Shown here: piece by piece, positions 4,648 to 63,800 of the stretch
Numbering within the stretch: position 1 is the stretch's first letter
Layout: every line of letters starts with the position of its first letter
Virus record (IMG/VR): IMGVR_UViG_3300009702_000014
Span: 62,445 to 126,444 of that record
DNA length: 64,000 bases
DNA from: a virus
Lineage: Duplodnaviria > Heunggongvirae > Uroviricota > Caudoviricetes
Reading direction: 5' to 3' (one strand)
Translations under genes and position numbers: made by a program
Notes under the pieces: generated by a model
What the model was told of the DNA's origin: nothing
The model's database searches: none
Seen by the model: the letters and a program-made list of their open reading frames with translations, nothing else

Positions 4648-4651
4648 CTAA

Positions 4652-4858: not shown

Positions 4859-4880
4859 ATACCTCTTCTATTTCCCAATC

Positions 4881-5120: not shown

Positions 5121-5794
5121 AGCCAGCCTTCTTCTTTTAGAAAGCCCCTAAGCCCTCCCACAATTTTATTGTTATAGTAGCGCCAAAGTGTTAAGTCTAA
5201 ATCAGCAACGGTACCTTTGAACCCCTGCTCCTTCCATGCATGATAGAGCAACAGAAACACCCTTTCCAATTCTAGATATCTTTTCGGCCCGCTGGGAGTT
5301 GTTTGTGGCACATGTAAACTATTACCTATATCAGCCTGTTTAAGGTATTTAAGAACATGAGTATCCAACGCCGCGCACTCAGGGGGATTTTTTCGGGAAT
5401 GAAGAATGAAGAATCTGGAGGTTTTCATTCCTATTCCTGGGAATTTCTCTAACTCTTCCAGCGTTAGCTTTTTCAAGTCTTTGATGTCAGAGTAATTCCA
5501 GCTTATGTAGGAGAAAAGGCGCATCATCAAATCATACTTGCCCAACTTGTGCTCTTTTAAAAGCCGTAAAAGCACATTTTCAAGACGATTGAGAGATAAT
5601 GCCATAATAGCTGAGAAAGGAGTCACTTCAAAGCCGCCCATCAGCGGGTATGCCATAATCGACTCCAAAAAAGCATCTACCTTCTTAGCAGTTGTGCCCG
5701 CTGTCTTGCCGCCTACAGCTACAGCGAAAATGAGAAATTCTTGTAATTCTTCGTCCGTTCTGTTAAAATTCGTAATTTTCTGAGGGTCTACCAT
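5117..5794 (-). CDS. HhH-GPD superfamily DNA glycosylase (endonuclease III-like)
   Basis: helix-hairpin-helix LEELEKFPGIGMKTSRFF followed by AALDTHVLKYL (catalytic Asp region, compare endonuclease III VDTHIFRV). Confidence 0.5.
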   Translation of the reverse strand: MVDPQKITNFNRTDEELQEFLIFAVAVGGKTAGTTAKKVDAFLESIMAYPLMGGFEVTPFSAIMALSLNRLENVLLRLLKEHKLGKYDLMMRLFSYISWNYSDIKDLKKLTLEELEKFPGIGMKTSRFFILHSRKNPPECAALDTHVLKYLKQADIGNSLHVPQTTPSGPKRYLELERVFLLLYHAWKEQGFKGTVADLDLTLWRYYNNKIVGGLRGFLKEEGWL

Positions 5795-24371: not shown

Positions 24372-25481
24372 TCATGAGATATCGTCCTTCCACCTTAGTC
24401 CGACACCAACAGGGAAGCGAGGCACACCATCGTCTGTCTTTTCAAAAAACCTAACTGTCAGCTTTTCTCCGATATGCGAATCAGCTTCCTGGTACCACGC
24501 TTGACGTTCTTCCATCGTTCCCTTCGGGACCACGTTAAACTTAATACCCTCCGGGGTTTCACACTCATAAATGATACAACCTACAAACTTGCCGACACCC
24601 TCTGTGTAACCTGTAACAGAATACTCAGCATCCAGAAAATCCTTCTTTTTAAGAAGAGCCGCTGAACGAGCACCTGTACGGTATCCCAAGTCTTTGTCTT
24701 TAAGGCCACGGGTTAGGCGTATAATAGAACCTTCGTAGCCCTGCTGGATGAAGGATTCGTGTGCCTTTTGCACTTCTTCCTCGTTGAAGCAAGTCTGTTC
24801 CCCAACAAGTTTAATCTTATCAGCTTCAGGAAAATCTAGGAAAGTGATATCATGACGATTTTTCCAATTATCATCCTTTGTTAAAGCACAATAGCTATCA
24901 TAGCAATGGAATTCGACGTTTTCGGATTCTCCCGGACGATACTTCTTCACAAGCTTCAAGAGGGACTGGAATCCCATACCATGAATGTACAGCTCGCCGT
25001 CAAGAACCATCGGGGGAAGGTTCATGTCCTTAACCTGTTGACGAATATGCTCACAATTCTCGATAGGCTTACCCGAGCGGCTGACCATTTCGACATCATC
25101 ACCATCTGCACGAATCAGGCAGCGAACACCATCCAGCTTAGGCTGAACATAGACCGGAAACTGCTCCTTCTTGAGCTTCGTCACGGACTTGGCCAGCATC
25201 GGTTGGAGCTTATCTACAATATTTGACGTGGCCCGAGACTCACTATACTTACGGTCCTTCTGATAGACCCACATAGCCTCAGCTTCAAGTAGAGCCTGTT
25301 CCTCAGCGGTAGTCGAATTCGACTTGCCTACATTCTTTGGTGTAGCCTGTTTGGACGCCTCTTGCTTTGAATCTCCTTCACCACCATAAAGGGTGAAAAT
25401 GGTATCTCCTTCGACCCAAATATCCCACTCGTAGGTCTTGCCCGAATTATTCGTGTAATATAGCCTCGGCCAAGTTTTCAT
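24372..25481 (-). CDS. ATP-dependent DNA ligase
   Basis: motif I QPKLDGVRCLIR (KxDG) and downstream nucleotidyltransferase motifs. Confidence 0.8.
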   Translation of the reverse strand: MKTWPRLYYTNNSGKTYEWDIWVEGDTIFTLYGGEGDSKQEASKQATPKNVGKSNSTTAEEQALLEAEAMWVYQKDRKYSESRATSNIVDKLQPMLAKSVTKLKKEQFPVYVQPKLDGVRCLIRADGDDVEMVSRSGKPIENCEHIRQQVKDMNLPPMVLDGELYIHGMGFQSLLKLVKKYRPGESENVEFHCYDSYCALTKDDNWKNRHDITFLDFPEADKIKLVGEQTCFNEEEVQKAHESFIQQGYEGSIIRLTRGLKDKDLGYRTGARSAALLKKKDFLDAEYSVTGYTEGVGKFVGCIIYECETPEGIKFNVVPKGTMEERQAWYQEADSHIGEKLTVRFFEKTDDGVPRFPVGVGLRWKDDIS

Positions 25482-29717: not shown

Positions 29718-31274
29718 ATGAACAAACTAAACACTACCAGACAACCAAGAACCCGTTATGTTAACACCTACGAGGGCGGTCGCGGCCTCAAGGTCGGCGC
29801 TGAGGAAGAATTGGCGTTTCTAACCTTCGCTAGCAATTTCCATGACAAGTTTTATGAAACCGGTAAGGCTACTCTAAAGCGTATGGAGGCTCTTGTTAAC
29901 CAGTCGCGCCCGGAGTTCGTCCAACAGCTAGCCCGTGTTGCTCGTCAAGAGTTCAACATGCGTGCTACCCCAGCAGCTTTGACGGCTTTCTATACCTTGA
30001 AGCATGGACAGCCAGATAATGATAAGCTTATCACTGACGCTTTCTTCCGTGGCGACGAAATCGGTGACTACCTAGCCGTAGTCGAATCTGCCTCCCGTAA
30101 GGGTAAGGTTATTCCTTCTGCCGTTCGTTTTGCTCGTCGCGTTTTGCAGGAACAGCTAAATGAGCGTAAGGCTCTGCGTTATGCTCGTTCTGGACGTGCC
30201 TGGAGCCTAGCTAAGATTATTCGCCTAAGCCACGCCCGCATGGGTGCTACCCCAGCCCAGGAAGCTCTCTTTAATTTCGTGCTCGCATGGAATGGTGAAG
30301 GTAGCTTGACAAAGGCGTGGGAAACGCTGCCCTCCGCACAGCGCAAGTTGCTTCCGACTATCAAGCAGGCTGTCGAAGGTGGAGACGCCGACGGCAGCAT
30401 CAGTTGGGAACGTACTATTTCTGCTGCTGGTGCAGAGAAGGACTGGACTAGGGTTGTAGATAAGATGGGCTACATGGCCCTTCTACGTAACCTTCGTAAC
30501 TTCCTCCAGGACGTTCCGGCTAAGAATACGGAATTCTGGAACACGGTTACTCGTAGGCTAGCTGACGAGGAAGAAGTCTTGGCTTCTAAGCAATTCCCAT
30601 TCCGTTTCTACTCTGCATACAAGGCTATTAAGGATATGCAGCACGCTAAGACTCACGCGGTCATTGATGCGCTGTCTACTGCCTTGGACTACTCGGCACG
30701 CAATCTCCCGGAATTCCCGGAAAAGACCCTTATCGTTATCGACGCTTCCGGTTCTATGAGTAGTGGTTTGCTTTCCGACAAGTCTGAAATGTCTTATCGT
30801 GAAGTCGGGGAAGTTTTGGGTGCAGCTCTATTCACTACGACAGGTGCAGATGTTGTACACTTCGGTACGACTGCGTACAAGCACAACGGCCTCGACGTAA
30901 ACAGTGGTGTTCTAAACACCCTTAATGAGTTTGCTACGGTCAACCACAGCACGGTAAGGGGCATCTATATGGGTCGGGGTGGCCGCAAGATGGTCGGCCA
31001 CAGCACAGAGCTTGGTTCCATTCAAAGCGTTGTAAATGTTAACGACTATGATGCTATCATCGTTTTCTCTGACATGCAGCTAGCTGATAGTGCCAGCAGC
31101 ACCCTTGGTAACTACAAGGGTAAGCTCTACACTGTCAATATGGCGGGCTATGAGGCCCAGCTAGACCTACGTAGCAACGATGTTGTTGCTGTCGGGGGTT
31201 GGAGCGAAGCTGTTCTCCGGCTTATGTCGCTTATCACACGTAACCAGCTTATCAAGTACATCCTGGACTACTAG
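29718..31274 (+). CDS. rsr: Ro60-like RNA-binding protein (TROVE domain plus C-terminal vWA domain)
   Basis: vWA MIDAS TLIVIDASGSMSS; 518 aa with N-terminal region resembling TROVE as recalled; strong RBS AAAGGAGA. Confidence 0.6.
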   Translation: MNKLNTTRQPRTRYVNTYEGGRGLKVGAEEELAFLTFASNFHDKFYETGKATLKRMEALVNQSRPEFVQQLARVARQEFNMRATPAALTAFYTLKHGQPDNDKLITDAFFRGDEIGDYLAVVESASRKGKVIPSAVRFARRVLQEQLNERKALRYARSGRAWSLAKIIRLSHARMGATPAQEALFNFVLAWNGEGSLTKAWETLPSAQRKLLPTIKQAVEGGDADGSISWERTISAAGAEKDWTRVVDKMGYMALLRNLRNFLQDVPAKNTEFWNTVTRRLADEEEVLASKQFPFRFYSAYKAIKDMQHAKTHAVIDALSTALDYSARNLPEFPEKTLIVIDASGSMSSGLLSDKSEMSYREVGEVLGAALFTTTGADVVHFGTTAYKHNGLDVNSGVLNTLNEFATVNHSTVRGIYMGRGGRKMVGHSTELGSIQSVVNVNDYDAIIVFSDMQLADSASSTLGNYKGKLYTVNMAGYEAQLDLRSNDVVAVGGWSEAVLRLMSLITRNQLIKYILDY

Positions 31275-33201: not shown

Positions 33202-33725
33202 TTGTAAATGTTATAGATGTAGAAGCTACCTGCTGGCAAGGAAAACCACCGGTAGCTTCTGAAATTATTGAGATTGGTATTGCTGAGATTAACCTCGACA
33301 CGCATGAGCTTATCAATGCCAATGGTATGTTTGTTAAACCTATTCTTTCAACTTCTCTTAGCCCGTTTTGCACAGAGCTAACGGGTCTTACTGACGAGGA
33401 GATTTTTGAAAACTCCGCAGCGTATGATTTTTCTAAGAGTGCTCAGGTTTTGATTGAGGAATATAACTCCGTAAAACGCCCCTGGTTGAGTTGGGGGCAG
33501 TATGACTTCAATCAGTTCCAACGAGACGCACAGTTACATGGCATCAAAAATCCTATGGGGCGTAACCATCTTAACCTAAAGCTTCTGTACTCGCTTAAAA
33601 CCGGTAAAAAACAAGTCGGAATGGATAAGGCTCTTAAAGAGCTGGGCATGGAGCTTATTGGGCAGCACCACAGTGGGCAGGATGATGCCCACAATATTGC
33701 TCGGATTGCACTTGAAATTCTATGA
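33186..33725 (+). CDS. DEDDh-type 3'-5' exonuclease
   Basis: Exo I VIDVEATC, Exo II WGQYDFNQF, Exo III HSGQDDAHNIARI. Confidence 0.6.
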   Translation: MGATMIVNVIDVEATCWQGKPPVASEIIEIGIAEINLDTHELINANGMFVKPILSTSLSPFCTELTGLTDEEIFENSAAYDFSKSAQVLIEEYNSVKRPWLSWGQYDFNQFQRDAQLHGIKNPMGRNHLNLKLLYSLKTGKKQVGMDKALKELGMELIGQHHSGQDDAHNIARIALEIL

Positions 33726-34651
33726 TTCTTTCAGGTACAGGGCACCGCCCTAATAAGCTAGTAGCACACGGGAAGCAAGCATACCCTAATCCCAACACTT
33801 ATGGTTTTGGATATGCTTATTCTCGTCTTATAGACTTGGCTTATGCCTATCTGCTTAAATTAAAGCCTGCAAAAGTTGTCTCAGGGATGGCTTTGGGATG
33901 GGATTTGGCGCTTGCTCAGGCTGCTCTTTATGCAGAGATTCCCTATATAGCTGCTGTGCCGTTTAGGGGTCAAGAGTCCCAATGGCCCGAAAGTAGTCAA
34001 AAATATTACCGTGCTGTTCTTTCTATGGCCGAATCTATTGAATATATCTCTCCTGGAGAGTACTCGGCGTGGAAAATGCAAAGCCGCAATAAATGGATGG
34101 TGGACCATAGCGACACCGTATTAGCTTTATGGAATGGGACTCCCGGAGGAACAGCCAACTGCATAAAGTATGCCGAAGAGACCAAGATTCACATTATTAA
34201 TGCCTGGGATAGTTGGGATAATCACAAAGAGGATAGATTTGAATTTTCTAACTTCGGTTTGGCAGATGTGCCCTATGGTGGTATAATATACCCATCGGTA
34301 GAGAACTTCTACCAAGCAATGAAAACAACGAATCCTGTGATGCGCAAGCATATAGCTAGCGTCTCCCCGGAGGAAGCAAAAGCCTTGGGCCGAAAGGTGA
34401 CGTTGAGAACAGATATTGATTGGGATAACATTAAGGAAGAAATCATGAGGACTGGCTTGCATATTAAGTTCTCAGAGAATAAGGAGTGGCTTCGTAAGCT
34501 ACTTGCCACGAAGGGAAAGCCCCTTATCGAATGGAATACGTGGGATGATACATTTTGGGGAAAAGATATTAAGTCCGAACAAGGTGATAATCGGTTAGGT
34601 ACCCTCCTAGAAGAGATACGGGAGGTTCACCGGCCACCAGGGGAGGAGTAA
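33722..34651 (+). CDS. two-domain protein: N-terminal Rossmann-like (possibly SLOG/YpsA-like) domain fused to a C-terminal NADAR (YbiA-like) domain
   Basis: C-terminal YPSVENFYQAMK...AKALGRKV...DWDNIKEEIMRTGLHIKFSEN...LIEWNTWDDTFWGKD..GDNRLGTLLEEIR matches the NADAR pattern as recalled; start overlaps the exonuclease stop. Confidence 0.55.
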   Translation: MILSGTGHRPNKLVAHGKQAYPNPNTYGFGYAYSRLIDLAYAYLLKLKPAKVVSGMALGWDLALAQAALYAEIPYIAAVPFRGQESQWPESSQKYYRAVLSMAESIEYISPGEYSAWKMQSRNKWMVDHSDTVLALWNGTPGGTANCIKYAEETKIHIINAWDSWDNHKEDRFEFSNFGLADVPYGGIIYPSVENFYQAMKTTNPVMRKHIASVSPEEAKALGRKVTLRTDIDWDNIKEEIMRTGLHIKFSENKEWLRKLLATKGKPLIEWNTWDDTFWGKDIKSEQGDNRLGTLLEEIREVHRPPGEE

Positions 34652-35041: not shown

Positions 35042-35223
35042 ATTGGAATAGATGGAGAGCCTATATTCCAGGAAATGTTAACGGCAGTTGTAATACGGAA
35101 TTAGAAGCCGCTAAAAAGAACGGAACATATCATGAAAACAGTACTTAAAACAGATTTCATAGACTATTATGATTTTTTTTTGACACATTAATAATCCCGG
35201 AACCACACCACACCTTCAAGCGT

Positions 35224-35772
35224 ATGGGGCGTACTAATTTTAGTCGTCAGGCTGCATTGAATTTTCTGGATGATTGGGGGTATGTCTACACTGTTCCTCA
35301 CGGCTATCTCGGAGATTTAGGAGAGCAGTTTGGCTTTGACCAGGAAGCAGTCATATACCTAGACCCATATGCCCATCAGGGCGATGGTAAAACAGTCATG
35401 AAAATCAGAGAAGCAGTCAAGCTATATCCTGACTCTTATGCTTCTTTGTTTTACCCTCGAAATTATAGCATCAGACAGCTTCAAATAGGCAGACAAGACA
35501 TTTTTCTCAAATACTCCTCTGACCACCCGTGGAAGTCTAATGTAGGTAACGTACAAATTGAAAAGGTTAGTGCGGCCCCAAGGATGGGAAGTTATAACGA
35601 GTACTTTCCCATGTTTGCCATAGATTACATTCCCTTCACAGAATTTGAACTTCTGGCCGTAGATTTAAATACAGCCCCCCTCATCAAATTCACACCTGTA
35701 GAAGATATAATGAGCCCTAAAGAAATTGTTAATGAAATTCGTGGATGGATGGAGTGGAAATATGGTAACTGA
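35224..35772 (+). CDS. hypothetical protein
   Basis: 182-aa ORF. Confidence 0.4.
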   Translation: MGRTNFSRQAALNFLDDWGYVYTVPHGYLGDLGEQFGFDQEAVIYLDPYAHQGDGKTVMKIREAVKLYPDSYASLFYPRNYSIRQLQIGRQDIFLKYSSDHPWKSNVGNVQIEKVSAAPRMGSYNEYFPMFAIDYIPFTEFELLAVDLNTAPLIKFTPVEDIMSPKEIVNEIRGWMEWKYGN

Positions 35773-36238
35773 TAGATTAGGTAAACCGATGAAGCCAGGG
35801 GATATTATAGCCTACAGAGGCCGTTCGGGAGATATCGGGGTCTTAAATCTAAGAATAATTCTGGATACCAAAGAGGAGCAGAGGCCAAGCCCTGATTTTA
35901 AAGGCAGAATGGATACAGTATCCACAATCTACATTGTAAAGGCTGACCTAGAAAATCCCCGCATTGAAATTCCCATTAGGAATGATGCAGACCTGGAAGC
36001 TCTCAAACAACATCCCAAACTAAGCGATGTCCGCCGCAAGTATGATAATCCTTATATCGCCTGGGCCAGGGACTTGTCTCGGGAGGAGTTTTCTGCCAAA
36101 CGAGCACAGGTATACTTTCCTGAGAGAGCAGCAATAGTCGATTTACCCCCTCAAACACCAGATGAGCCTCTAGAAATAAAGGCATTGAGGATGGGAAGAG
36201 AGAAGGTTTTGAATGGTGAAATACGAAGAAAGCGATAA
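35726..36238 (+). CDS. hypothetical protein
   Basis: 170-aa ORF, likely starting at internal Met MVTDRLG. Confidence 0.4.
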   Translation: MLMKFVDGWSGNMVTDRLGKPMKPGDIIAYRGRSGDIGVLNLRIILDTKEEQRPSPDFKGRMDTVSTIYIVKADLENPRIEIPIRNDADLEALKQHPKLSDVRRKYDNPYIAWARDLSREEFSAKRAQVYFPERAAIVDLPPQTPDEPLEIKALRMGREKVLNGEIRRKR

Positions 36239-36794
36239 GAGCCTCTTTGACCCTGAATTAGAATTAGACATGATTTTCAATCCAGTTAATTGCAAGGGCG
36301 TCGCTGGCAAGGGGCTGGCAAAAGAATTCAAAGAGAGATATCCTACGGGTTTTGCTACCTATCGACAGCAATGTCAATCCTCTATGATGATGCCAGACGC
36401 AACAGGGAAGCTTCGTAAAGTTCCTAACTTTCAGCCCGGTGATGTTCTTCACTTTGTTGATATGACACCCCAGGAATATGAGCAAATTAATCAGGCAGAA
36501 ACAGCAGACGAAGCAGTAAAGCTTGCCGAAAGAGTGCGCAAGCATATCGTGTATTTCCCAACAAAGAACCACTGGAAACGCCCCTCTCAATTGAACTTCA
36601 TTGTAAAAGGAATGAGGAATGTCCGTAGTCTCTTGGAACGCGAGGATATCCAGGAACAAGTGCATCGTATAGGAATTCCTGCGTTAGGCTGCGGATTAGG
36701 GGGTTTGAATTGGGCCGATGTTAGGCGTACAATAGAGGAAGCTCTAGCTGGCCTAGAGGCTAATTATACAGTAGTTTTATTTCCTCCTCAATAA
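36213..36794 (+). CDS. macro-domain (ADP-ribose binding/processing) protein
   Basis: IFNPVNCKGVAGKGLAKEF and IGIPALGCGLGGLNWADV match macro-domain glycine-rich motifs. Confidence 0.5.
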   Translation: MVKYEESDKSLFDPELELDMIFNPVNCKGVAGKGLAKEFKERYPTGFATYRQQCQSSMMMPDATGKLRKVPNFQPGDVLHFVDMTPQEYEQINQAETADEAVKLAERVRKHIVYFPTKNHWKRPSQLNFIVKGMRNVRSLLEREDIQEQVHRIGIPALGCGLGGLNWADVRRTIEEALAGLEANYTVVLFPPQ

Positions 36795-36847
36795 GCCCCA
36801 CAAAGGGGCTTTTGTTTTGCTCGTGATGGCTATGCTATAATAATCTT

Positions 36848-37033
36848 ATGCCAGAGAATAACCATAGAACTGTCGTATTGGGCGTCGTTTCAGATATTTT
36901 AAATGATGAAGAATTAGACAATTTACGTGTGAAGGATATTCGTAGGGTAGTTCTACACCTACAGGACAGGTTAAATACAAGCGGGAAAACAGAAGAGGAA
37001 AGCGACGAAGAGTTGCGAGACTACATTCTCTAG
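36848..37033 (+). CDS. hypothetical small acidic protein
   Basis: 61-aa ORF. Confidence 0.3.
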   Translation: MPENNHRTVVLGVVSDILNDEELDNLRVKDIRRVVLHLQDRLNTSGKTEEESDEELRDYIL

Positions 37034-37043
37034 GAGGCTCTAG

Positions 37044-37991
37044 ATGGTTCAAAGAAGCGCAAGTTTGGTTAAAAAGACAGTGGGTGGTGCAACTGCATTC
37101 ACAGCCGGGTCTTTGTATCCAAAGGTTCTAATCAATGGAACAACAGGGGTATATACTGCTGTTAAGAATTTGGCAGATGAAACAAGTATTCTCACTCCAC
37201 TGGTCGGAGTAAATGATACTTGGGTCGTATGGGAACCTGATGTGGCCCCCAGTGTAACGGTAAATAGCGTTACTTACCCGCTCACTTTTGGTACAGACTT
37301 CGACACGATGGTTTACCTAGACGAAACAGGGACTTCAAATGTAGTTCACGAAGCTATCGGTGCTCCCGTGTTAACGACTGCCTGGAATACGCCCACAGTA
37401 AATGCCTCTAACCTAAGTTGGACCAATACGTATCTAAGCCCGACGTATATCTACCGCACCGCCCCGTACGCCACGTTTAGCAGCACTCCTGTTTCTAATG
37501 TTGCTGGTACAATCCCGGCGGCTAATAATACCACAACGACAGTTTATAGCTATACCGCCTCCACCACCGGCGAAATTTCTGTGGCTTACTCTTTGACAGC
37601 TTCGGGAGCACCAAGCGCACCAGGAAGTGTACAACTTCTACAAAACAACCAGCCTATTCTTAATACAGGTGGTACACTTCCAGCAGATACAAGTACTTAC
37701 AGCTTTACAGATAGAATCAGTGTAACGTCTGGAGATGTTATCAATATTTCTGTGACAAACGGTGATACGGGTACGGTTATCACATATGCTGCCTCTGCCA
37801 TCACCATTAAGATATATGCTGTTGCCCCGTCTACGTATACCTTAATTGCTAAGGTTGACGGTCCAAGTATTCCGGGGACTCCTGCAACTTACGCGGATGC
37901 TGCCTCTGGTGTGACCTCAGCTAATTCTGTCACCTACATGGTTATGAATGCTAATGGTACTTCTGCAAGTGCCTACGTTGATGTTCCTTAA
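37044..37991 (+). CDS. Thr/Ser-rich hypothetical protein (possible structural/Ig-like)
   Basis: 315 aa, about 35% S/T/A/G/V. Confidence 0.4.
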   Translation: MVQRSASLVKKTVGGATAFTAGSLYPKVLINGTTGVYTAVKNLADETSILTPLVGVNDTWVVWEPDVAPSVTVNSVTYPLTFGTDFDTMVYLDETGTSNVVHEAIGAPVLTTAWNTPTVNASNLSWTNTYLSPTYIYRTAPYATFSSTPVSNVAGTIPAANNTTTTVYSYTASTTGEISVAYSLTASGAPSAPGSVQLLQNNQPILNTGGTLPADTSTYSFTDRISVTSGDVINISVTNGDTGTVITYAASAITIKIYAVAPSTYTLIAKVDGPSIPGTPATYADAASGVTSANSVTYMVMNANGTSASAYVDVP

Positions 37992-38095
37992 TTCCTAACT
38001 TAACAAAATACTAATGCTTAGCTCATTACACGAAACTTTAAAGAGTCTCGCGGGAAACCGTCGGGACTTTTTTGGTTTAAAGGAGAGTAACTCCG

Positions 38096-38761
38096 ATGGC
38101 AAAAAAGGGTATCAGTCTCTATTCTATTCTCAAGAAGTATTACCTCAATCCCTTACAAGTAATAGCAGTCGAGGCTATCCGAAACAACAAGATAGTCGTG
38201 TTACGTGGGGAAGCTGGTACAGCTAAAACATTCACAGCCGTTTATGCGGCCATGAAGTTGCTGACCGAAGAGAATAGCATTGAGAGGATTGCCATTACTC
38301 GACCGATGATTACAACCGAAAAGATGGGATTTCTTCCAGGAGAAATAGAGGATAAGCTAGACCCTTTTCTTAGCCCCGTCATTTCCTTTTTCAACAAATT
38401 TGGAGAAGCAGGTGAAAAGACCTTTGAAGCCTACACCGTCGCTGGAAAGATTCGCCGCGCCCCGCTCGCGTTTATGCGAGGCACCACAGTCGAGAGTGAA
38501 ATATTGATTGTAGACGAGGCACAAAACGTTACACCCGAGCAGATGCTCATGATTCTAACTCGCCTTGGAAAGGGTGGCAAAATCGTTATCACGGGAGACG
38601 AGAAACAAAACGACTTACATAGCATAGCAACCGGCATGGATTACATCGTGGCCTTGTCTAAACGCCTTCCCTACATCAGGGAAATCACGTTAACTGATAA
38701 CATGCGCGACCCAATCATCAATGAGATTATCCAGAACTGGCCACGTGAAATCCGCGTTTAA
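38096..38761 (+). CDS. phoH: PhoH-like ATPase
   Basis: Walker A GEAGTAKT; ILIVDEAQNVTPEQMLMILTRLGKGGKIVITGD. Confidence 0.75.
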   Translation: MAKKGISLYSILKKYYLNPLQVIAVEAIRNNKIVVLRGEAGTAKTFTAVYAAMKLLTEENSIERIAITRPMITTEKMGFLPGEIEDKLDPFLSPVISFFNKFGEAGEKTFEAYTVAGKIRRAPLAFMRGTTVESEILIVDEAQNVTPEQMLMILTRLGKGGKIVITGDEKQNDLHSIATGMDYIVALSKRLPYIREITLTDNMRDPIINEIIQNWPREIRV

Positions 38762-41496: not shown

Positions 41497-44400
41497 TCAA
41501 GTCTGTGGAAAGATATCCTTCAAGTTTATAGTCTGTTTGTTTTTCAACTCTTTCCAGGAACCGAGGCCGATTGTTTTAGAGTACAACTCTTCTGAGTATT
41601 TTTGCTTTTCATCATCAGTAGCAACACCTGTTTTGAGCTTGGCAGCTAATTCCTGTTGCTTGGAGTTAATGCCAGCGGTAAGAATGTCTACGAATGGCCA
41701 GTCGTATGTCAGGAGATAGACCGCCTTGGCAATAACATCGGCAATGTCCTTACCACCGTTAGCCGGGTGGTCTACCTTTGCTGGGTTCTTACTATTTGAG
41801 ACTATTATATGCCCGTCTTCTAGTAGAAAATTATGCGTACCATCAACCGTTATATCATACATAGCGGTTGGGGAAACAGTAACAGTCTCTACACAAGTAA
41901 CTGTACGATTGGCTGCGTCTAATTGCACCTTATTCATACCCAATAAACTAGTACCTGGGATTAACTCCTGAGCTTCTGTCCACTCGCCGTTACTGGTCAT
42001 GTATTTATGTTCTGGTGTAGATTTAATAACGGTCCCATCCTCAAGGGTCACTTTTGTTATCTGCGTTGTATGATACGTTATTCTGGCAGAATGAGCTAGT
42101 GCAGGCACAAAACCATCTTGAGCAGAATCATAGGAATATACCCAGAACGATTCTTTATCAGAATTAGCTAATTCCTCTAGCGTGGGAGTTGTACCATCCA
42201 ACAGGCATATCCTGGTATCTCCTGTAAAACATCTATCCTCCCGCAATTCTCGTAATTCTTCATAAACGATTGGATGCCACGGCAAATCAATCCCGCCATT
42301 GCTTTCTTTCTCCCCTTTTCCATTAGACGGCGGGGCTTCACCAAATAGAGCGTCTCGTAAGGCTGTATAATCCCTGGTTTCTACTAGGTTAAAATCTTTG
42401 ACCAGGGCGTCTCTGTAGGTTTTAGCAATCCATTGCGTGAGAGAGGCTGAATTATGACTTAGCAAGCCCTCTGCGATGTATGTATGGTCCCCATCAACCT
42501 CCATATGTACTATCGTTGAGGTAGATTCTACAATGTCAACTATCTTTACCGAATCTATAAAATCTGGTTTTTTAAGTTTAGAAACTAATTCTTTCAGTGT
42601 TTCTTGTTTTCTATCACTTAGAAATCCTACAACCTCAGAAAAGGGTATAATCTGACTGCCTAAAATAGTAACTTTATATCCATCTTTACGATATGCCTTT
42701 ACGCCCAACTGTAATAGTAATAGTTGTATATCTTTGGATACCTTTTCCGATACCGTAGTAAATTCAATCTTAGAATTTTCAATATCTATACTAGCTGAAT
42801 TTTCATAGAAGGCAGATAGAAAAGCCCCAATATCATTAGAAGTTCCATTAAAAGATAGTTGATAATCTTTAGGGGTTAATTTCGAAATTAGATATCCGAA
42901 CACAAGTGCTTCGGGTATATTTTCATGATTTCCAAAATGAGCCTGTTCTCCGTAAACTATGCTATCCCCAATAGAAAGGTTTTTTGCCTCTACAAAGCCT
43001 TTATTTTTAACATAAAGTGGGTGATTTCTTGTAACTTCTAGTTCAAGCCCAGTATCCATCTTGACAATATAAGAAGGAACGTTATCCTTACTTTCTAATT
43101 CTTGTACAGTATTTAAGCCTTCTTTTCCTACGACCGTATCCCCCACAGAAAGAGTCTCCACATTCCTATACCCTTCCTCTGTTAATACCTTAGACCCTTT
43201 AGCAATGCAATTCCAACCATCAAAAGAGAAATATTTGATGTTGTATCCATACTGGTCCTTGAGCTTGGTTATTAGTTTCTCAATAGCTACCATCTGTACC
43301 TGACCCTCTTCGAACATACGGCCAGTGAAACGGAACGCTAGGTCGATAATAGGACGTACATATTTACGGCCCCGCTCGTCTCGAACAATCTCTCGGTGAG
43401 CTAGCGCAATACCGTAACCGTCCCCACCGTTGACTTCGGAGCCAAGCGCGGGGTCTCCACAGAATACGTATGTCTGGTTTGGGTCGCCTACTTTTGCAAT
43501 AGGCATATCATAGGGTTCTAGCTGGTTAGACTCTCCATCTTCGCCTACGTATATGTGCTCGGAAAGTGGGGAACCTCGCCATTCTCTGTGTGAAATCTTG
43601 TTTTTCCATTCTTCTGTGCCTACTTCATGCGGGTCATAAGGAAGAGGCCAATCCAGAACCCACGTTCTATTCCAATTCATAGCATTCTTGATTCGCTTGG
43701 AATCCTTAATCCAGGAGTCAACAAAACTTCCTGTGACCACAGAGCCATACATACATGCGGCTTTTTCTGGATTTTCTTTGAAGTAGGATTCAAAGTCTTC
43801 CCTTGTGCGTGCAGGATGAAACTCCCAGGAGGCGTATTTTCTTGCATATACGTGAGAAAAGTTGCCAGCATTAGAATAAAATTCATTAATTTTACCAGAG
43901 GAGCCAACATAACGCTGATATGAGATTACCATAACCTTTTCATGGCCTTCGAAACGCGACTGTGAAGAAGTGCGAAGGGTATCTACAATCTTGTCTACGC
44001 TGTGAAATTCAACATCGTCAACCTCGTCAGCCATTGCTACGAGCAAGTCGTAACCTTCGATACCCCCTGCTCGACTGTTGGCCGACATGATTTCGATATT
44101 CTTTGGAAAGACCACCTGTGTTTTTTGAATATCTGTTTCAGGATTAAACCCAAATTGTCTGAAAGCTTTATCCCCCGAGGCTCTTAAAATATTTGCCAAG
44201 GGGTCGAAAAAGTTCTTTCTGGCCTGAGTCTCGTTAATAGCTACATTGATAAGGGTAATAGCCTTTGCGCTGTTATGATTCAGGTACTTATGAGGGTCAT
44301 ACATGCACAGCAGCTTATACACGATATAAAGGAAAAGTACGCCAGAGGACCAATTCTTTCCTCCCCCCTTTCCTACGAAAAGAACAAAGAAATTGATGCC

Positions 44401-44616
44401 ATTTTCCAAATCTGAGCCTTTTTCCAAGAAATCCTTCTGTACGTCAGAAAGGCCCCATAAATCCTGTCCCAGGTACTCATGGCTCAAGACAAAGGTTTCC
44501 AGGTCCACCGGTTTAATTCGGTAAACTTCCCCTTCGGACTCTTTGGCCGCATGTTCGCTCTTACGAAGCAAGTCACCCCAAGTCTCAGTGGCCTTAAACT
44601 CATTTCTTTTTGCCAT
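41497..44616 (-). CDS. terL: terminase large subunit interrupted by two inteins
   Basis: ATPase Walker A VGKGGGKNWS and Walker B LLVAMADEVDD; nuclease Asp motifs FCGDPALG and SFDGWN; 1039 aa against about 640 aa expected for exteins. Confidence 0.7.
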   Translation of the reverse strand: MAKRNEFKATETWGDLLRKSEHAAKESEGEVYRIKPVDLETFVLSHEYLGQDLWGLSDVQKDFLEKGSDLENGINFFVLFVGKGGGKNWSSGVLFLYIVYKLLCMYDPHKYLNHNSAKAITLINVAINETQARKNFFDPLANILRASGDKAFRQFGFNPETDIQKTQVVFPKNIEIMSANSRAGGIEGYDLLVAMADEVDDVEFHSVDKIVDTLRTSSQSRFEGHEKVMVISYQRYVGSSGKINEFYSNAGNFSHVYARKYASWEFHPARTREDFESYFKENPEKAACMYGSVVTGSFVDSWIKDSKRIKNAMNWNRTWVLDWPLPYDPHEVGTEEWKNKISHREWRGSPLSEHIYVGEDGESNQLEPYDMPIAKVGDPNQTYVFCGDPALGSEVNGGDGYGIALAHREIVRDERGRKYVRPIIDLAFRFTGRMFEEGQVQMVAIEKLITKLKDQYGYNIKYFSFDGWNCIAKGSKVLTEEGYRNVETLSVGDTVVGKEGLNTVQELESKDNVPSYIVKMDTGLELEVTRNHPLYVKNKGFVEAKNLSIGDSIVYGEQAHFGNHENIPEALVFGYLISKLTPKDYQLSFNGTSNDIGAFLSAFYENSASIDIENSKIEFTTVSEKVSKDIQLLLLQLGVKAYRKDGYKVTILGSQIIPFSEVVGFLSDRKQETLKELVSKLKKPDFIDSVKIVDIVESTSTIVHMEVDGDHTYIAEGLLSHNSASLTQWIAKTYRDALVKDFNLVETRDYTALRDALFGEAPPSNGKGEKESNGGIDLPWHPIVYEELRELREDRCFTGDTRICLLDGTTPTLEELANSDKESFWVYSYDSAQDGFVPALAHSARITYHTTQITKVTLEDGTVIKSTPEHKYMTSNGEWTEAQELIPGTSLLGMNKVQLDAANRTVTCVETVTVSPTAMYDITVDGTHNFLLEDGHIIVSNSKNPAKVDHPANGGKDIADVIAKAVYLLTYDWPFVDILTAGINSKQQELAAKLKTGVATDDEKQKYSEELYSKTIGLGSWKELKNKQTINLKDIFPQT
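41791..42228 (-). mobile_element. intein 2 in terL (146-aa mini-intein, C797-N942, +1 Ser)
   Basis: begins CFTGDTRICLLDG; ends FLLEDGHIIVSN|S. Confidence 0.55.
42448..43209 (-). mobile_element. intein 1 in terL (254 aa, residues C470-N723, +1 Ser), with putative endonuclease region
   Basis: begins CIAKGSKVLTEEG immediately after nuclease motif FDGWN; ends IAEGLLSHN|S. Confidence 0.6.
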
Positions 44617-44617
44617 G

Positions 44618-45304
44618 TTATCCCTCTATTGGTTCTGCATCGAGCATAGGAGTTTCTTCACGCATAACCTTTCCTATGTCGGAGTCCCAATACATCAGTA
44701 CATCTTCGCGGGTTAGAGAGTCCAGAACACGCTTCGCTGCTGGGTCAGCGTCAAGAGCCCTTTGTAATTTACGATAAAGTGCAGGGTCCTCTTTACGCAA
44801 TAAATCTGTAACAATCTTGACATAAGAGACCTCTTTTTGCACATCAAGAACCTGCGCAAAGAGATTAATATACCCTTCTAATTGCTTTGGAGCCATTTCT
44901 ACAAGCTTATTAAGTTTTTGAGCATTCCTGTTCCATTGTTGCAGAGTGTCGTAATTATCTCCTTTGGTTAAGGCAGTTAGTCCCTGCTCATCAATGATGC
45001 TGGCTACCTCTTCTCGATACATTTGAGCCAACATACCAGTAAAAGCCAGTTCCTTAGAAGCATGGTGTACACTCTGGAAATAGTGAGTGATAACACTCAA
45101 CGGGCTAAACTCATCCGTCATTGCGATAGCTTCTAGATTCTCGTCATTGTAGTTACGAAGCTTGTCGTCACGTATAAATCGGTATACTTCGGTATAACCT
45201 AAATCAAACTTATCCGCAATTTGTCGGTAATTTAATTTTTGCTTGAAATGGGCATCTTTAATCTTATCTCCAAGTCCCAATTCCTTGATACGCTTATGCT
45301 TCAT
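44618..45304 (-). CDS. HTH-containing protein immediately upstream of terL (small-terminase candidate)
   Basis: N-terminal YRQIADKFDLGYTEVYRFI. Confidence 0.35.
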   Translation of the reverse strand: MKHKRIKELGLGDKIKDAHFKQKLNYRQIADKFDLGYTEVYRFIRDDKLRNYNDENLEAIAMTDEFSPLSVITHYFQSVHHASKELAFTGMLAQMYREEVASIIDEQGLTALTKGDNYDTLQQWNRNAQKLNKLVEMAPKQLEGYINLFAQVLDVQKEVSYVKIVTDLLRKEDPALYRKLQRALDADPAAKRVLDSLTREDVLMYWDSDIGKVMREETPMLDAEPIEG

Positions 45305-45668
45305 AACCAGTCACCAACTTGTCATTTATCCAATGACGTTGTATATTTCTTGAAGGGGTAGGCACCAGTTCAAATACCTTGTCGTTTTCTTTCTCTGTTA
45401 CTTTTGTCACCCGCCAGATTGTAAGTTCTTCGCCAAATTGAAATGTGTCTCCGATATCCAACCATCGGAAATCATCCACATTAAAATATTGTACATGGAA
45501 ACTCTCTTCTAGCCCCCGTTCTTTGATTTCGTACTTAATAAATCTACGTAAATTTGAGTAGTGGACTCTATACTTATCCGCAATCTCACTCATATTAAGA
45601 TTGCCGTATAAATAATCCTGCATTATAGCCTCTGCGTGGGGACGTAATCTCTTAAACTTGCCTTTCAT
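45294..45668 (-). CDS. HTH-containing protein, N-terminal paralogue of the previous ORF
   Basis: MSEIADKYRVHYSNLRRFI. Confidence 0.35.
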   Translation of the reverse strand: MKGKFKRLRPHAEAIMQDYLYGNLNMSEIADKYRVHYSNLRRFIKYEIKERGLEESFHVQYFNVDDFRWLDIGDTFQFGEELTIWRVTKVTEKENDKVFELVPTPSRNIQRHWINDKLVTGYEA

Positions 45669-47164: not shown

Positions 47165-47710
47165 CTATATCCTTTCATATAGTTGAGCTACTTCGGAACT
47201 AAATTTACGTGTATTCAAAATGGGCCTCGTATCTAGTTTATGCCCCTCAAATGTCTTAATGCCCTCTTTGATTCCCTCTAAAAACTCTGCATTGTTTACA
47301 AGATATTTGTCTGGTAAGTGTTTATCTTCTCCCTTGCCGAATTCTGACAGAAGCTCCGCGAGAGGCTTACTATAACAAATAGCCTGATAAACCCCCTTAC
47401 TGCTCCGACGTAAAGAAAGGTCCAGAGCAAATGATTCTTTCATATAACCCTGGAGCTTACCAAAGTATTCTATTTTATCAACGGGGATGTACCAACGCAC
47501 GGAGCCGCGCTTAGAATGCTTGTATGTGACGAGACTGGCATTCCCTATAGCCAAAAATGAGCCAAACACAAAACCTAGAGCATAATTTGAATGTATAAAT
47601 ATACGTAAATATGTATCTTTACCAGTTATGAGGTATTCTCCATCCACAGTAGCCCTCTGAACATAATGCGCCATATTAAGTGTGAAGCCCTTTTTATTCA
47701 TCGAATCCAA
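47165..47710 (-). CDS. hypothetical protein
   Basis: 181-aa ORF. Confidence 0.4.
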   Translation of the reverse strand: MDSMNKKGFTLNMAHYVQRATVDGEYLITGKDTYLRIFIHSNYALGFVFGSFLAIGNASLVTYKHSKRGSVRWYIPVDKIEYFGKLQGYMKESFALDLSLRRSSKGVYQAICYSKPLAELLSEFGKGEDKHLPDKYLVNNAEFLEGIKEGIKTFEGHKLDTRPILNTRKFSSEVAQLYERI

Positions 47711-48737
47711 TCATATCAGACGGTTTTATATTTTCAAGACGTGTCTGCGCTTCTCTATCCTCCTCAGACACCCTAAAAAACTCTACTTGGCTCTGAAATT
47801 CTGGTAAATCGAGGGCATCGACATAAGCCATAGCACTTCTCAAACCATCGCTTAATTCCTGCATGATATCTTTCACGGACTTGTCCTCATAAGGGACATA
47901 CCCTGAAACACCTTCGACATAGGAGTTGATTTTCTTCTCTTCGGCAGAGGCCATTCCTCGATAAGGTTTATACCATCGTCCTTGAATTTTCACAGGTTCC
48001 CAAGGTGTTTCTTTCGCCCCCGCAAATAGCCGCCCTAACATCACCGCATCGGCCCCAAGAGCTACTGCCTTTACGAAATCTCCGACATTCTTAACGCCAC
48101 CATCAGATATTATCGGCTTGTCATGCCAACGTGTCGCTTCTTGGATAAGCCATCCCTGTGGCGCTCCTACACCGGTTACAAGCCTCGTGGTACAACCTGA
48201 ACCGCTGCCAATACCAAACTTATAAATTAATTCACCCTTCAAATCACGTCGTTGAAGAACACCAGGGTTTCCAAAGTTGCCAAGGATAAGAGGATACTTT
48301 CCTTGCCAATCAATATCCTCAATAATAGAACCATTAGCTATATCAATAGAGATAAAAGCTTCGGTATCTTCCAGGGTAGCTTGATGCACTTGAAATTCTT
48401 GGTAACTAACGGCAATACCGAATTCTATACCGGAATCCGGCAGTACTTGTGACGCTGCAAGGCGTTCATGAAGTGTGGAACCCCGGCTAAGGACATGAAG
48501 GCCGCCAGCCGCGTACATAGCTTCTGCAAAGCCCCAAAAAATGTCGTTGCTATCAGTATCCGAAGTATCAAAAAGGGACATACTTGCGGATAAAACCGGC
48601 ATAGGCAATTCTATATCATAGAAAGCAGTCGTTGTATCCACCATAGCCCGAGATTTTACACGAGACTTAGACTTGGGTTTTATCAATATATTGTCAAAGG
48701 TAAATGTTTCTGTCATTAAACGTCTTTCTGAGGACAT
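47694..48737 (-). CDS. GMP reductase / IMP dehydrogenase-family (TIM-barrel, catalytic Cys) enzyme
   Basis: GIGSGSGCTTRLVTGVGAPQ and ISDGGVKNVGDFVKAVALGADAVMLGRLFAG; 347 aa as in GuaC. Confidence 0.7.
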   Translation of the reverse strand: MSSERRLMTETFTFDNILIKPKSKSRVKSRAMVDTTTAFYDIELPMPVLSASMSLFDTSDTDSNDIFWGFAEAMYAAGGLHVLSRGSTLHERLAASQVLPDSGIEFGIAVSYQEFQVHQATLEDTEAFISIDIANGSIIEDIDWQGKYPLILGNFGNPGVLQRRDLKGELIYKFGIGSGSGCTTRLVTGVGAPQGWLIQEATRWHDKPIISDGGVKNVGDFVKAVALGADAVMLGRLFAGAKETPWEPVKIQGRWYKPYRGMASAEEKKINSYVEGVSGYVPYEDKSVKDIMQELSDGLRSAMAYVDALDLPEFQSQVEFFRVSEEDREAQTRLENIKPSDMIGFDE

Positions 48738-60828: not shown

Positions 60829-63800
60829 TTACCCGCAGTTTGAAGCTCCGCAGTCACGGCACAAAGTACAGCCTGATTCGAAGATTACATTTTCACCACC
60901 ACAAACAGAGCATGTAACTCCTTTAATCTCGGTACCGTTCTTAATATGAGATGAAAGGAACTTCTTGATAGCAAAGATTAGGTCTGTAACATAGACCTCT
61001 GGAACGCGGTCCAAAGCTGCCACAATGTTGGTCAATGGAATGTTATGACGGAGACACATGGAAACAAACTTAGCAACACGCATGTATCCCCCGTTGCCTT
61101 TGGTTTTTTCTTTTTGTACTTCAATCAAGTCAGGGTCAATCTCAAAGCGTTCAAGCAAGTCTACGAGTACTTTAACTGCTCCGTTTGCTTCACGAATATC
61201 CCCCGTGTTGTTCGTTTGAATCCAAAGTGCGATGGGGAATATTCTCTCGGAATCCTCGGGCAGATAAGAGAAATTCATGTAGAACTTCTGCCCTTCTCGC
61301 TTAATAATATGCATATCCCCATTTATAAACACATCAGGAAGCTTCAAGTCCTTTTTAATAACATCTGGCTGTTTAGTCTCTTTGGATTCCTCGACTTGTG
61401 AGAGGACTGCTTCCATTGAACCGGCTCTATAGGTTGTGAATCCATTTAGCCCGCGCTTCCATGCCTCCATATACAGATTCTTAAACTCTTCATAGTCGTA
61501 GTTATTTGGCACATTTAGAGTTTTGCTCGTGCTTTGGTTCATATTGCTTTGAACTATCTCTTGTATATTGATATGGTCCATAACGTTCAAGTCGTTGGTT
61601 GTAACCATGTAATATTCGACGGGCAACGAAAATAAACCTTCTTGCACTTCATAGTCCTCCGGGTAATTATCCATAACCCATTGAACTCCATAGTCCCTTA
61701 CAGTTTCGGTAATGCATAAACCTCGATTGTGTGGTTCATAAAGCCAGTTCGTTCCGTTATATTCTCCGGCCCACGCTACGGAGTCTCCCTGCTTTGTCTC
61801 CTTCAATATATCCTTAATATTCTCTTTTGTTAATCCCTTGGGCCAAGTATCAGCGATGTAGGTACGCTGGTATTCAGTCATAAACACGGGCTCAATACCA
61901 TTCGAAACAATATCACAGATAACCGACGAATTACCTAGTGGAGGATTCGTGGTTGTCTTACCGTTACGGACACCATTCTTACGGATTAAGTCCTTGGTTT
62001 CCTCGGAAATCTTTGTGAACTCGGTGAACCATTGAGTCGTTAGGAAGTTTTCATTGTAGGCGGGGAATGGACCCTTTTCGGCTGCCAACTCCGCAGACGT
62101 TCTCCAGGTCAATTCTTCCTTTAGGGCGGTGACTCTTTCAGTAAATTCATGCGCGTCTTTGGAATTATATGCAATACCCATCATATACAAGGCGGACCCC
62201 AAACCATTGATGCCCATACCATATTGACGCACATTTTCTGTGGCCCAATTATATTGAGGTAACGCATTGTTTGTTAAGTCATTAACATTATCCAAAGCCC
62301 GCGCAAAGATAGGAATATCTTTCTTTAACTGGTCCCAGTCAAAACTCCTATCATCCAAAACGTACTGAGTCAAGTTGATGGACCCCAAAAGACATACGGT
62401 ACTCGTAAGTGGGTTGCCACCAATCTCACCACACGGGTTTGTGGCGTTCAATGGACCAAGGTAAGCCAACGGATTATTGCGCTGCATACTGTCATAGAAC
62501 AAAATACCCGGTTCTGCACGGTTGTATGTAGACTTCATAATTAGGTCATACAACTCACGGGCCTTAATACGCTTGTAAACCTTACCGTCAAAGTGCAAAT
62601 CGTAGAAGTCGTCAGCTTCAACGGCTTCCATAAACTTGTTGTCCACGATAACAGACATATTGAATTTTGTTAGACGGCCCGGTTCCTGCTTCGCTCGTAC
62701 ATACTCTTCGATATCCGGGTGCCAAATAGGCAGAACAGCCATCTGAGCACCTTTACGAGCTTGCTTCTTCATTTTAATAGAAGCATCTTTACCCATTTCA
62801 TCTAAATAATTCTTAATCGTATCTTGATATCCGTCATTGTTACCCATGACAATAACTGTCGCTACTTTATCCCAGATATCCATATAATGAATCACACCAG
62901 GGTGAGTGATACCTATACTTTTAATAACAGAGCCACGCGGCCGAATAAAACCAAAATTAATACCATACCCTCCCTCCGACTTGAGGGTTTCTGCCTGTTC
63001 CAGCAGAGTGAGCATGATATTCTTTAGATTGTCACCAGTATCGTCTGTATGGTAAGTAACATCAATAGTTTTGTCCGTATTTGGCACAGGGCGTTGGTAG
63101 GAGATGGTCGCGTTTTTTACAGGCCCATTAATGAAGCAGTTGCCACTAAAAATACCTCCTGAAAGGGTAAAAGTTGCAGTTTTTGGCACAACCGCACAAT
63201 ACACTTCTTCCTCACGCAATAGTGGAGTAATGCTAACAACCTTAAACTTTAGGTTACGAGCGTTGTATAGAATTAGTCTTTTGAGTAAGCTACTACGCTT
63301 ACCCAAATTAGTTTCTTCTGAGTGGTAATCCGTTCTATATCCAGTTGCAATGTATCCCGCAAAGGGAGCATTCTCCTGCAACCATCGAAGGCCCTTTAGG
63401 TTGGTTGAAGAAAGCTCTACCCGTTCGTCACTGAGTATGCTCCCGTCAGCAGCTAACCAGCCTTTGATAAAGCCTGAAATGTAATTAGGGTCAGTATCCG
63501 TAGGAAGCTCTTTGAAGTTTATAGGGCTTCTAACGTAGGTGATTGCATCAACACCACCCCAGTCAACACCTTTAACATTGTCAAACATGGAAGAGTACTG
63601 TAAATCTTTTTGACCGAAAAACCTTACTTCAAACTTATAGTCTCCGTTTGCGTAGCTGTAAGCCCTCCAGCCACCACCAAAAACAAACCCGTGTTGGAAT
63701 CCGTAGCGGTAGTTCTCCGAAGTAGTATCTACCTCTGCCACCTGAGCAGGAACAACATCTCCTACACGCAACGCTGTCGTTTCAGTTCCATCCGAGAGTA

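Follow-up and report, generated by a model that had tools for sequence, protein, structure and literature searches.

Inteins are commonest in phage large terminases, where they adjoin functional motifs (Kelley et al., mBio 2016, PMC5050341). Seven insertion sites have been described in mycobacteriophages (TerL1-a to e, TerL6-f and Pham3880-g), all of them in the ATPase domain; efficient splicing of the mycobacteriophage terminase inteins has been demonstrated, as has endonuclease activity in two cases (PMC5050341). The large terminase of the long-tailed, 92.6-kb cyanophage Mic1 contains two inteins, of which one interrupts the ATPase domain and the other the nuclease domain (PMC7156551, Front Microbiol 2020), and the TerL of the crAss-like phage cMAG OBYQ01000140 consists of three in-frame extein fragments and two Hint-Hop inteins, with further inteins and introns present in the same genome (Nat Commun 2021, PMC7886860). 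In actinobacteriophages, a switch of extein from terminase to Cas4 has also been reported (bioRxiv 10.1101/2025.01.02.630785). Here we analyze a gene at 41497-44616 on the minus strand of a 64,000-nucleotide stretch of caudoviral DNA (positions 62,445 to 126,444 of IMG/VR record IMGVR_UViG_3300009702_000014; hereafter, the window). With a probability of about 0.88, we read this gene as the precursor of a phiYS40-type large terminase that carries two class-1 inteins in its RNase-H-like nuclease domain.

Two inteins in one open reading frame

The reading frame is open throughout its 3.1 kb in the standard code, with zero in-frame stops. A preliminary description, made from the sequence alone, had called it a terminase large subunit about 400 aa too long that contains two inteins. 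Excision of both inteins leaves an extein of 640 aa, 399 aa below the length of the reading frame, and the size estimate agrees with homologues of 620-647 aa. The same gene, with 2 nt different, is present on an independent assembly (L003; Logan, SRR6056608), and therefore the two-intein structure is not an assembly accident. Both differences are in the N-extein (N364H and E367D; window 43516-43527), in a loop that is missing from phiYS40 TerL. The coordinates of the features discussed here are collected in Table 1.

The splice junctions can be read directly. Intein 1 begins CIAKGSKV right after FSFDGWN and terminates LLSHN, followed by SASLTQ. Its nucleophile is C470, its C-terminal residue is N722 with S723 at the +1 position, and the penultimate His is present. 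Block B is VTRNHP (TRNH), in which the Thr and His are invariant among the inteins that share this site, and block F is VDGDHTY, with Asp. The preliminary description had the Cys start and the SHN-Ser end correctly and was one residue too long, at 254 aa. Intein 2, which stands as first described, begins CFTGDTRICLLDG after ELREDR and terminates HIIVSN, followed by SKNPAK. Here the nucleophile is C796 (CFTGDT...), the C-terminal residue is N941 and the +1 residue is S942; block B is STPEHK (TPEH), and block F is YDITVDGTHNF, likewise with Asp.

Scanned alone, each intein passes the curated cut-off of the Pfam family Intein_splicing (PF14890; 35.8 bits), intein 1 with 43.7 bits and intein 2 with 48.8 bits. 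The sequence matches in the PDB are the gp41-1 intein and a bacterial intein-like domain for intein 1, and the solved DnaE, DnaB, RadA and RecA mini-inteins for intein 2. When the AlphaFold model of intein 1 was compared with known structures by Foldseek, the best matches were the endonuclease inteins TliVMA, PI-PfuI and PhoVMA, with many mini-inteins next in rank; every match with E below 0.001 was an intein or another Hint-fold protein (bacterial intein-like domains and a hedgehog autoprocessing domain). The two inteins differ in base composition. The G+C content of intein 1, 34.9%, is below that of every other 759-bp segment in the 64 kb (minimum elsewhere 36.4%; mean 44.7%, SD 3.6%), and this supports a foreign origin, whereas that of intein 2, 41.1%, is within the normal range of the window. 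The three extein segments have a G+C content of 44-47%.

Comparison with intein-less homologues shows the same boundaries. A search with the 640-aa extein returned 56 homologues, about 45 of which are full-length (620-647 aa) and contain no HINT domain, and against these proteins both insertion points are clean alignment gaps at the exact junction residues. The closest homologue, P0002, has 81% identity, and its sequence across the two sites is FSFDGWN-SASLTQW and LREDR-SKNPAKVDH. At the DNA level, about 1.6 kb of the extein coding sequence can be aligned with the P0002 gene (locus L002), at 74% identity; relative to L002 the insertions measure 759 and 438 bp, exact multiples of three, and no intein DNA was found anywhere in that locus. 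The middle extein aligns without gaps to both phiYS40 TerL and P0002. Thus neither insertion corresponds to ordinary sequence in the terminase homologues, and the view that they are inserted elements stands. The IMG/VR loci returned do not include the window phage itself; the best of them is 100% identical to P0002 and the next 63%, and a megablast search with 24 kb around the gene returned no match among 50,697 phage records.

The host protein

What is the host protein of these inteins? We consider it very likely to be a large terminase subunit, as first proposed, on the basis of its predicted fold and its orthology to the TerL of Thermus phage phiYS40 (YP_874075, 622 aa). The extein is 42% identical to this protein from end to end, and phiYS40 TerL is the sole terminase annotated among the 170 phiYS40 genes. 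In tblastn searches the extein matches the 'terminase large subunit' of phiYS40 and of TMA, and, more weakly, terminases from phages of Brevibacillus, Rhodococcus and Streptomyces. The AlphaFold model of P0002, calculated with 36 homologues in the alignment, has a pLDDT of 84, and the top 14 Foldseek matches of this model in the PDB are all large terminases, with E values from 1e-12 to 9e-6. Both domains are covered by the alignments to the full-length chains of HK97 (6z6d, E 1e-12), T4 gp17 and D6E, which extend over 536-591 columns; those to five ATPase-domain chains (T4 gp17 and P74-26) extend over about 300 columns. The Walker A, Walker B and nuclease motifs that the extein would contribute to this fold are listed in Table 1, together with the residues that are invariant in the intein-less homologues.

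Endonuclease decay and proposed homing history of intein 1

Three homologues, P0019, P0030 and P0022, carry an intein at the identical residue. These inteins are 342, 331 and 256 aa long, respectively, and their BLASTP identity to intein 1 is 31-45% with deletions included and 41-61% over the aligned columns. In P0019 both LAGLIDADG motifs keep their acidic residue (motif 1, YLIAEGDW; motif 2, YEGDGNV). In P0030 the motif 1 Glu is kept and the second acid, that of motif 2, is replaced by Tyr; in P0022 the first half-domain is mostly lost and the second acid is replaced by Lys. The window intein reads YLISKLT at motif 1, where Glu is replaced by Lys, and FYENSAS at motif 2, where the acid is replaced by Ser, and about 64 residues of the first half-domain, after motif 1, are missing relative to P0019 and P0030.

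The predicted structure shows the same loss. Instead of the two alpha-beta-beta-alpha-beta-beta-alpha units that a two-motif LAGLIDADG endonuclease would have, the model of intein 1 contains a single one (intein residues 124-211), and the region of motif 1 (intein residues 87-121) has a pLDDT below 50 and is predicted to be disordered. Where each motif of a two-motif enzyme ends in Asp or Glu, intein 1 has Lys and Ser. The endonuclease is very probably inactive, so the label 'endonuclease-type' that intein 1 had been given overstates the case and should read 'endonuclease-derived': one half-domain is left, and both catalytic acids are gone.

Could intein 1 still encode an active, mobile homing endonuclease, for example a single-motif LAGLIDADG enzyme that acts as a homodimer? 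The domain scores above the Pfam cut-off for LAGLIDADG_3 (27.2 bits against 22.5, over intein residues 128-177), its one remaining unit is complete and modeled with fair confidence, the low G+C content could mean a recent arrival, and a relative that shares the site appears to have been mobile recently. We nevertheless regard an active enzyme as improbable, given the Lys and Ser that stand where P0019 has Glu and Asp, the deletion and predicted disorder of the first half-domain, and the inteins of P0022 and P0030, which are intermediate stages of the same decay.

The evidence for mobility comes from a pair of relatives. The exteins of P0019, which contains the intein, and P0014, which does not, are 98% identical, and a stretch at residues 409-455, at most 60 residues upstream of the insertion point (after residue 468), holds 12 of the 13 differences between them. 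This clustering looks like the pattern expected of a co-conversion tract left by recent homing, and the intein 1 lineage is, or was, mobile. No co-conversion footprint was found at either site when the window gene was compared with that of P0002, as the identity near the two sites (0.85 and 0.92) is not below that elsewhere. We propose that intein 1 derives from a LAGLIDADG intein lineage that homed into the FDGW(N or Q)/S site of this terminase family (here and below, a slash within a sequence marks the insertion point or splice junction) and that it is now in the decay phase of the homing cycle, having lost a half-domain and replaced both catalytic acids. The intein-less P0002-type sequence at this site is TTTGATGGCTGGAAT/TCTGCCTCT, and in P0002 and its locus L002 the site reads ...TTTGATGGCTGGAAT/TCTGCCTCTTTAACC.... 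Site 1 offers a series through the homing cycle, from P0019, where the endonuclease is intact and the comparison with P0014 shows a footprint like that of co-conversion, through P0030, where one residue is lost, to P0022 and the window gene, where a half-domain is deleted, and finally to the empty site of P0002.

A more distant terminase (28% identical), encoded by ORF 2773-5460 of locus L026 (IMGVR_UViG_3300037493_003260), also has an intein at the intein 1 residue, with the junctions YDGWQ/CTLGSNKV...FVHN/SVD. The L026 intein belongs to an intein-2-like clade, so site 1 has been used by two intein lineages.

Relatives and insertion site of intein 2

Intein 2 is a mini-intein without an endonuclease domain, and its relatives are numerous. 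A word-indexed search returned a single match, an RtcB intein; this search was too insensitive and was replaced by an exhaustive phmmer search, which returned 3989 relatives, 1433 of them at E <= 1e-10, with an overall identity of at most about 49%. Most of these relatives are found in long proteins with several HINT domains, and the best matches by domain score are in sequence contexts unlike the window terminase. We propose that intein 2 belongs to a very large, promiscuous clade, the full-length members of which carry HNH and HTH domains.

Among the top 150 match proteins there are 14 distant terminases that belong to the superfamily of the window protein, each containing two to four HINT domains. 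The recurrent intein sites in these proteins are the P-loop, the equivalent of site 1, a hot spot at KVDHxxxx/SKDxxD, and KDMADS/. The site 1 equivalent, D-x-[FW]-[QN]/C...HN/S, is occupied in P0177, P0180, P0133 and L026. The hot spot, in the form KVDHxxxx/C...HN/SKDxxD, is occupied in P0048, P0093, P0146, P0148, P0177, P0115 and P0168 by inteins of about 140 to 410 aa. With regard to their endonucleases, the P0048 intein matches HNH_3 at E 0.016 only and has HTH_23 above the cut-off, and an HNH-like motif was recognized by reading the sequences of the P0146, P0148 and P0133 inteins. Neighboring HINT domains in P0115, P0116, P0148, P0186, P0177 and P0133 are sometimes separated by as few as 7-8 residues (...VHNS KDMSDGL C... 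in P0115).

The site of intein 2, LREDR/SKNPAKVDH, is 11-13 residues upstream of the KVDHxxxx/SKDxxD hot spot. No other intein was found at this site among the 56 close homologues, in 79 loci of IMG/VR or in the 14 distant terminases with several inteins. How did intein 2 reach it? The intein of P0048 is 40% identical to intein 2 (E 3e-27), and we considered a specially close kinship of the two, with a shift of site. This idea was rejected when P0048 ranked only about 23rd among matches to the N-terminal domain, behind inteins in unrelated-looking contexts. Since the P0048 intein has no special place among the relatives of intein 2, the simplest account of intein 2 is an independent invasion. 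We propose that inteins 1 and 2 are selfish elements that were acquired separately. A move within the gene is an unlikely second account. The hot spot is close by; some of its inteins, which are larger and of the same broad clade, precede the same Ser-Lys as intein 2; and the window subfamily reads GG/KD at the hot spot and thus has no nucleophile there. Therefore intein 2 could have moved ectopically to the neighboring Ser-Lys site in the same gene and later lost its endonuclease. If so, the gene would be a rare snapshot of inteins colonizing new sites.

Placement of the inteins and proposed splicing

In the P0002 model, D466 (D465 in P0002) closes a beta-strand and a helix begins two residues on. 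Intein 1 is inserted at the start of this helix, directly after N469 and three residues past the invariant D466. Intein 2 is inserted in a hairpin ahead of the D957/D960 helix, 16 residues before D957. With one insertion beside D466 and the other before the KDxxD helix, both inteins fall within the nuclease domain, and the ATPase domain is left uninterrupted, in keeping with the earlier placement of both insertions in the C-terminal nuclease half.

We propose the following series of events, the steps of which are taken from the standard class-1 intein mechanism. After translation, each intein would fold into a HINT domain. First, Cys1 would undergo an N-S acyl shift. Second, the +1 Ser would attack the thioester. 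Third, the C-terminal Asn would cyclize, and fourth, an O-N shift would re-form the peptide bond. Ligation of FDGWN to SASL and of REDR to SKNPAK would then yield the 640-aa terminase. With the inteins positioned beside D466 and D957/D960, the precursor is expected to lack nuclease activity before both inteins have been spliced, and up to that point its nuclease domain is probably not properly packed.

Might the inteins have been kept for this reason? Conditional splicing, in response to redox state, temperature or DNA, could time the activation of the nuclease, and such a role would be compatible with a selfish origin. It has been proposed for the Mic1 terminase (PMC7156551) and for other intein hosts. 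In the window gene only the nuclease domain is interrupted, next to its catalytic motifs, with the ATPase domain spared, and both inteins persist although their endonucleases are dead or absent. These features would fit a regulatory function. Against it, neither intein is present in the closest relative, at 81% identity, or in about 90% of the family; the conservation of homing sites explains placement at conserved motifs equally well; and no evidence for any sensor feature emerged from the present analysis. We consider selection for regulation improbable.

Several observations weigh against the reading of the gene as a two-intein terminase precursor. The 640-aa extein had no match in Pfam or PHROGs up to E = 10 (local Pfam-A and PHROGs v4), and no match among the PDB sequences even as a 36-sequence family profile; the database Pfam tag of the protein is PF27249, 'MJ0330_N', a name without reference to a terminase. 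The terminase call therefore depends on the predicted fold and on the phiYS40 annotation. D388, D466 and D957/D960 are presumed catalytic from their invariance and their position in the predicted fold. The confidence of the intein 1 model is moderate (pLDDT 66, with four sequences in the alignment), and at the end of intein 2 the penultimate His is missing (VSN instead of HN). We infer the splicing of both inteins from their intact catalytic residues and from the essential nature of the host protein. The penultimate His of inteins is common but not universal, and highly active DnaE-type inteins are also without it. The matches of the whole protein to PHROGs labeled 'DNA helicase', 'terminase' and 'head protein' were set aside, as all of them fall on the intein segments and reflect inteins within those PHROG families.

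The missing family matches would also fit a host protein that is a terminase-like ATPase-nuclease paralogue with another role, comparable to the mycobacteriophage 'Pham3880 terminase-like protein'. The name MJ0330_N points in the same direction, and the window shows just 64 kb of a genome of roughly 203 kb. This possibility appears slighter still than a regulatory role: the full-length HK97, T4 and D6E terminase folds rank above any helicase or other ATPase, the phiYS40 orthologue has no annotated rival in its own genome, and the distant tblastn matches are, without exception, annotated as terminases. We conclude that a large terminase is the better identification. Least probable of all is that the insertions no longer splice, so that the gene is either disabled or encodes a terminase in which two HINT domains are permanent and tolerated. 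The lack of a penultimate His in intein 2 and the origin of the gene sequence from metagenome assemblies, which do not prove phage viability, could be cited for it, but both inteins retain all nucleophiles as well as the residues of blocks B and F, the frame is uninterrupted over 3.1 kb, the two independent assemblies differ by 2 nt that are both in the N-extein, the exteins are equally conserved near the sites and elsewhere, and a terminase is unlikely to tolerate an insertion that stays unspliced three residues away from an invariant Asp of the active site.

Other inteins and genes in the window

The preliminary description had also inferred an intein-rich phage from at least one further intein in a ribonucleotide reductase (RNR). 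A class II (B12-type) RNR reading frame (60829-64000, minus strand) does enter the window inside an apparent LAGLIDADG intein (about 63139-64000). The segment does not align to RNR structures, and it contains a TPDH block B, the LAGLIDADG-like motifs YGFQHGFVFGGGW and FIKGWLAADGSI, and the end GIFSGN/CFING; a HINT profile built from the relatives of intein 2 matches the RNR frame at E 3e-5. The Pfam matches are below threshold (LAGLIDADG_3, E 0.007; Intein_splicing, E 0.09) because the element is cut by the window edge, with the N-terminal part of the intein and the RNR N-extein beyond the window. The RNR intein is thus visible, from its GIFSGN/C junction and TPDH block, and verified in part. 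A hidden Markov model of the intein 2 relatives found no inteins in 312 six-frame ORFs of the window beyond the terminase pair and the partial RNR element, and a Pfam scan of the other large ORFs found no intein. It is plausible that these 64 kb contain at least three inteins, the third partly verified.

In phiYS40 (L083), the RNR at 35201-38206 is annotated as two adjacent ORFs, the 'N-terminal portion' and the 'C-terminal portion'. The RNR genes of phiYS40-like phages may often be interrupted or split.

Upstream of the terminase gene, the neighboring frames 44618-45304 and 45294-45668 match only PHROGs of unknown function. The TROVE, GmrSD_N, RIIB, SLOG/DprA-NADAR, IMPDH and ligase genes of the window (Table 1) have no bearing on the terminase inteins.

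Table 1. Features of the two-intein gene and other annotated genes of the 64-kb window (window coordinates)
Feature	Coordinates	Strand	Evidence and remarks
Large terminase precursor ORF, two inteins	41497..44616	minus	1039 aa, ATG start, stop 41497-41499 (ORF listing)
N-extein, aa 1-469	43210..44616	minus	ATPase domain and first two-thirds of nuclease domain; C-terminal end FSFDGWN
Intein 1, aa 470-722, 253 aa, class 1, decayed LAGLIDADG domain	42451..43209	minus	Pfam, AlphaFold and Foldseek, site-sharing relatives
Middle extein, aa 723-795 (SASLTQW...ELRELREDR)	42232..42450	minus	Nuclease-domain segment between inteins
Intein 2, aa 796-941, 146 aa, class-1 mini-intein without endonuclease domain	41794..42231	minus	Pfam, PDB sequence matches
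C-extein, aa 942-1039 (SKNPAKVDHPANGGKDIADVIAKA...)	41500..41793	minus	Carries nuclease motif III
Walker A / P-loop VGKGGGKN, aa 81-88	44353..44376	minus	G82, K83, G84, G86, K87 invariant in 36 intein-less homologues
Walker B LLVAMADEVDD, aa 191-201	44014..44046	minus	D197, E198 invariant
Putative nuclease motif I, YVFCGDPALG	43441..43470	minus	D388 invariant; first long beta-strand of C-terminal domain (E382-392, P0002 model)
Putative nuclease motif II, FSFDGWN, aa 463-469	43210..43230	minus	D466 invariant; strand E459-464, then helix (P0002 model)
Putative nuclease motif III, KDxxD	41722..41757	minus	D957, D960 invariant; helix H557-570 (P0002 model)
LAGLIDADG motif 1 remnant ALVFGYLISKLT	42874..42909	minus	Catalytic Glu of relatives replaced by Lys (alignment)
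LAGLIDADG motif 2 IGAFLSAFYENSAS	42790..42831	minus	Catalytic Asp of P0019 replaced by Ser (alignment)
RIIB-like protein	8486-9607	minus	Pfam / PHROG scans
GmrSD_N-like protein	18574-19653	minus	Pfam / PHROG scans
ATP-dependent DNA ligase	24372-25481	minus	Pfam / PHROG scans
TROVE (Ro-like) domain protein	29718-31274	plus	Pfam / PHROG scans
SLOG/DprA-NADAR fusion	33722-34651	plus	Pfam / PHROG scans
IMPDH/GMP-reductase family protein	47694-48737	minus	Pfam / PHROG scans

Comparison with known terminase inteins

The two insertions are a familiar kind of selfish element, they reveal no new mechanism, and they leave the understanding of inteins and of terminases unchanged. They do set a trap for annotation. 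A naive call would be a 1039-aa 'hypothetical protein / LAGLIDADG endonuclease', whereas the mature product would be a 640-aa terminase, and the intein-bearing homologue P0022 is in fact named 'LAGLIDADG family homing endonuclease' at NCBI. If active, the 146-aa mini-intein, with its Ser at +1, and the apparently unrelated pair of inteins may be of minor interest as orthogonal splicing tools.

Among the published cases, the Mic1 terminase is alike in that it combines a larger intein, which has an endonuclease domain, with a mini-intein, and in that the nuclease domain holds at least one of the two (PMC7156551). Here, however, both inteins are in the nuclease domain, the +1 residues are Ser and Ser rather than Thr and Cys, the phage is phiYS40-like and the endonuclease is decayed; Mic1 is set apart on the basis of its published description. 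Unlike the mycobacteriophage TerL inteins, neither window intein lies within the ATPase domain; the survey that described those inteins covered Terminase_1, Terminase_6 and the terminase-like Pham3880 (PMC5050341), whereas the window host matches no Pfam terminase family. The crAss-like OBYQ01000140 belongs to a different phage order, has a different intein architecture and uses alternative coding, in contrast to the standard code used here.

Within the terminase family itself, the TerL proteins of phiYS40 and TMA are orthologues of the extein and have the same Walker and nuclease motifs; phiYS40 TerL is intein-less and reads FFDIYN-SAST and IEDR-EKKKVDH at the two sites. P0019, P0022 and P0030 have inteins that share both the lineage and the insertion residue of intein 1, while the HNH-motif intein of P0048 is at KVDHxxxx/SKD and not at the site of intein 2. 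P0177 and P0133, which match the extein weakly (phmmer E 5e-19 and 2e-5, respectively), resemble the window gene in having two nuclease-domain inteins, one after D-x-[FW]-[QN] and one near KDxxD; their second inteins are large and lie 11-13 or more residues downstream of the second site in the window gene.

Two inteins in one terminase are therefore not exceptional: they have been published, in Mic1 and a crAss-like phage, and they recur in metagenomes. The novelties of the window gene are modest, namely a terminase lineage missed by curated models, the location of both inteins in the nuclease domain, and a second insertion site that is apparently unused elsewhere. Taken with its relatives, the gene indicates that the nuclease domain also has recurrent intein hot spots, in comparison to the ATPase-only sites of the published mycobacteriophage survey.

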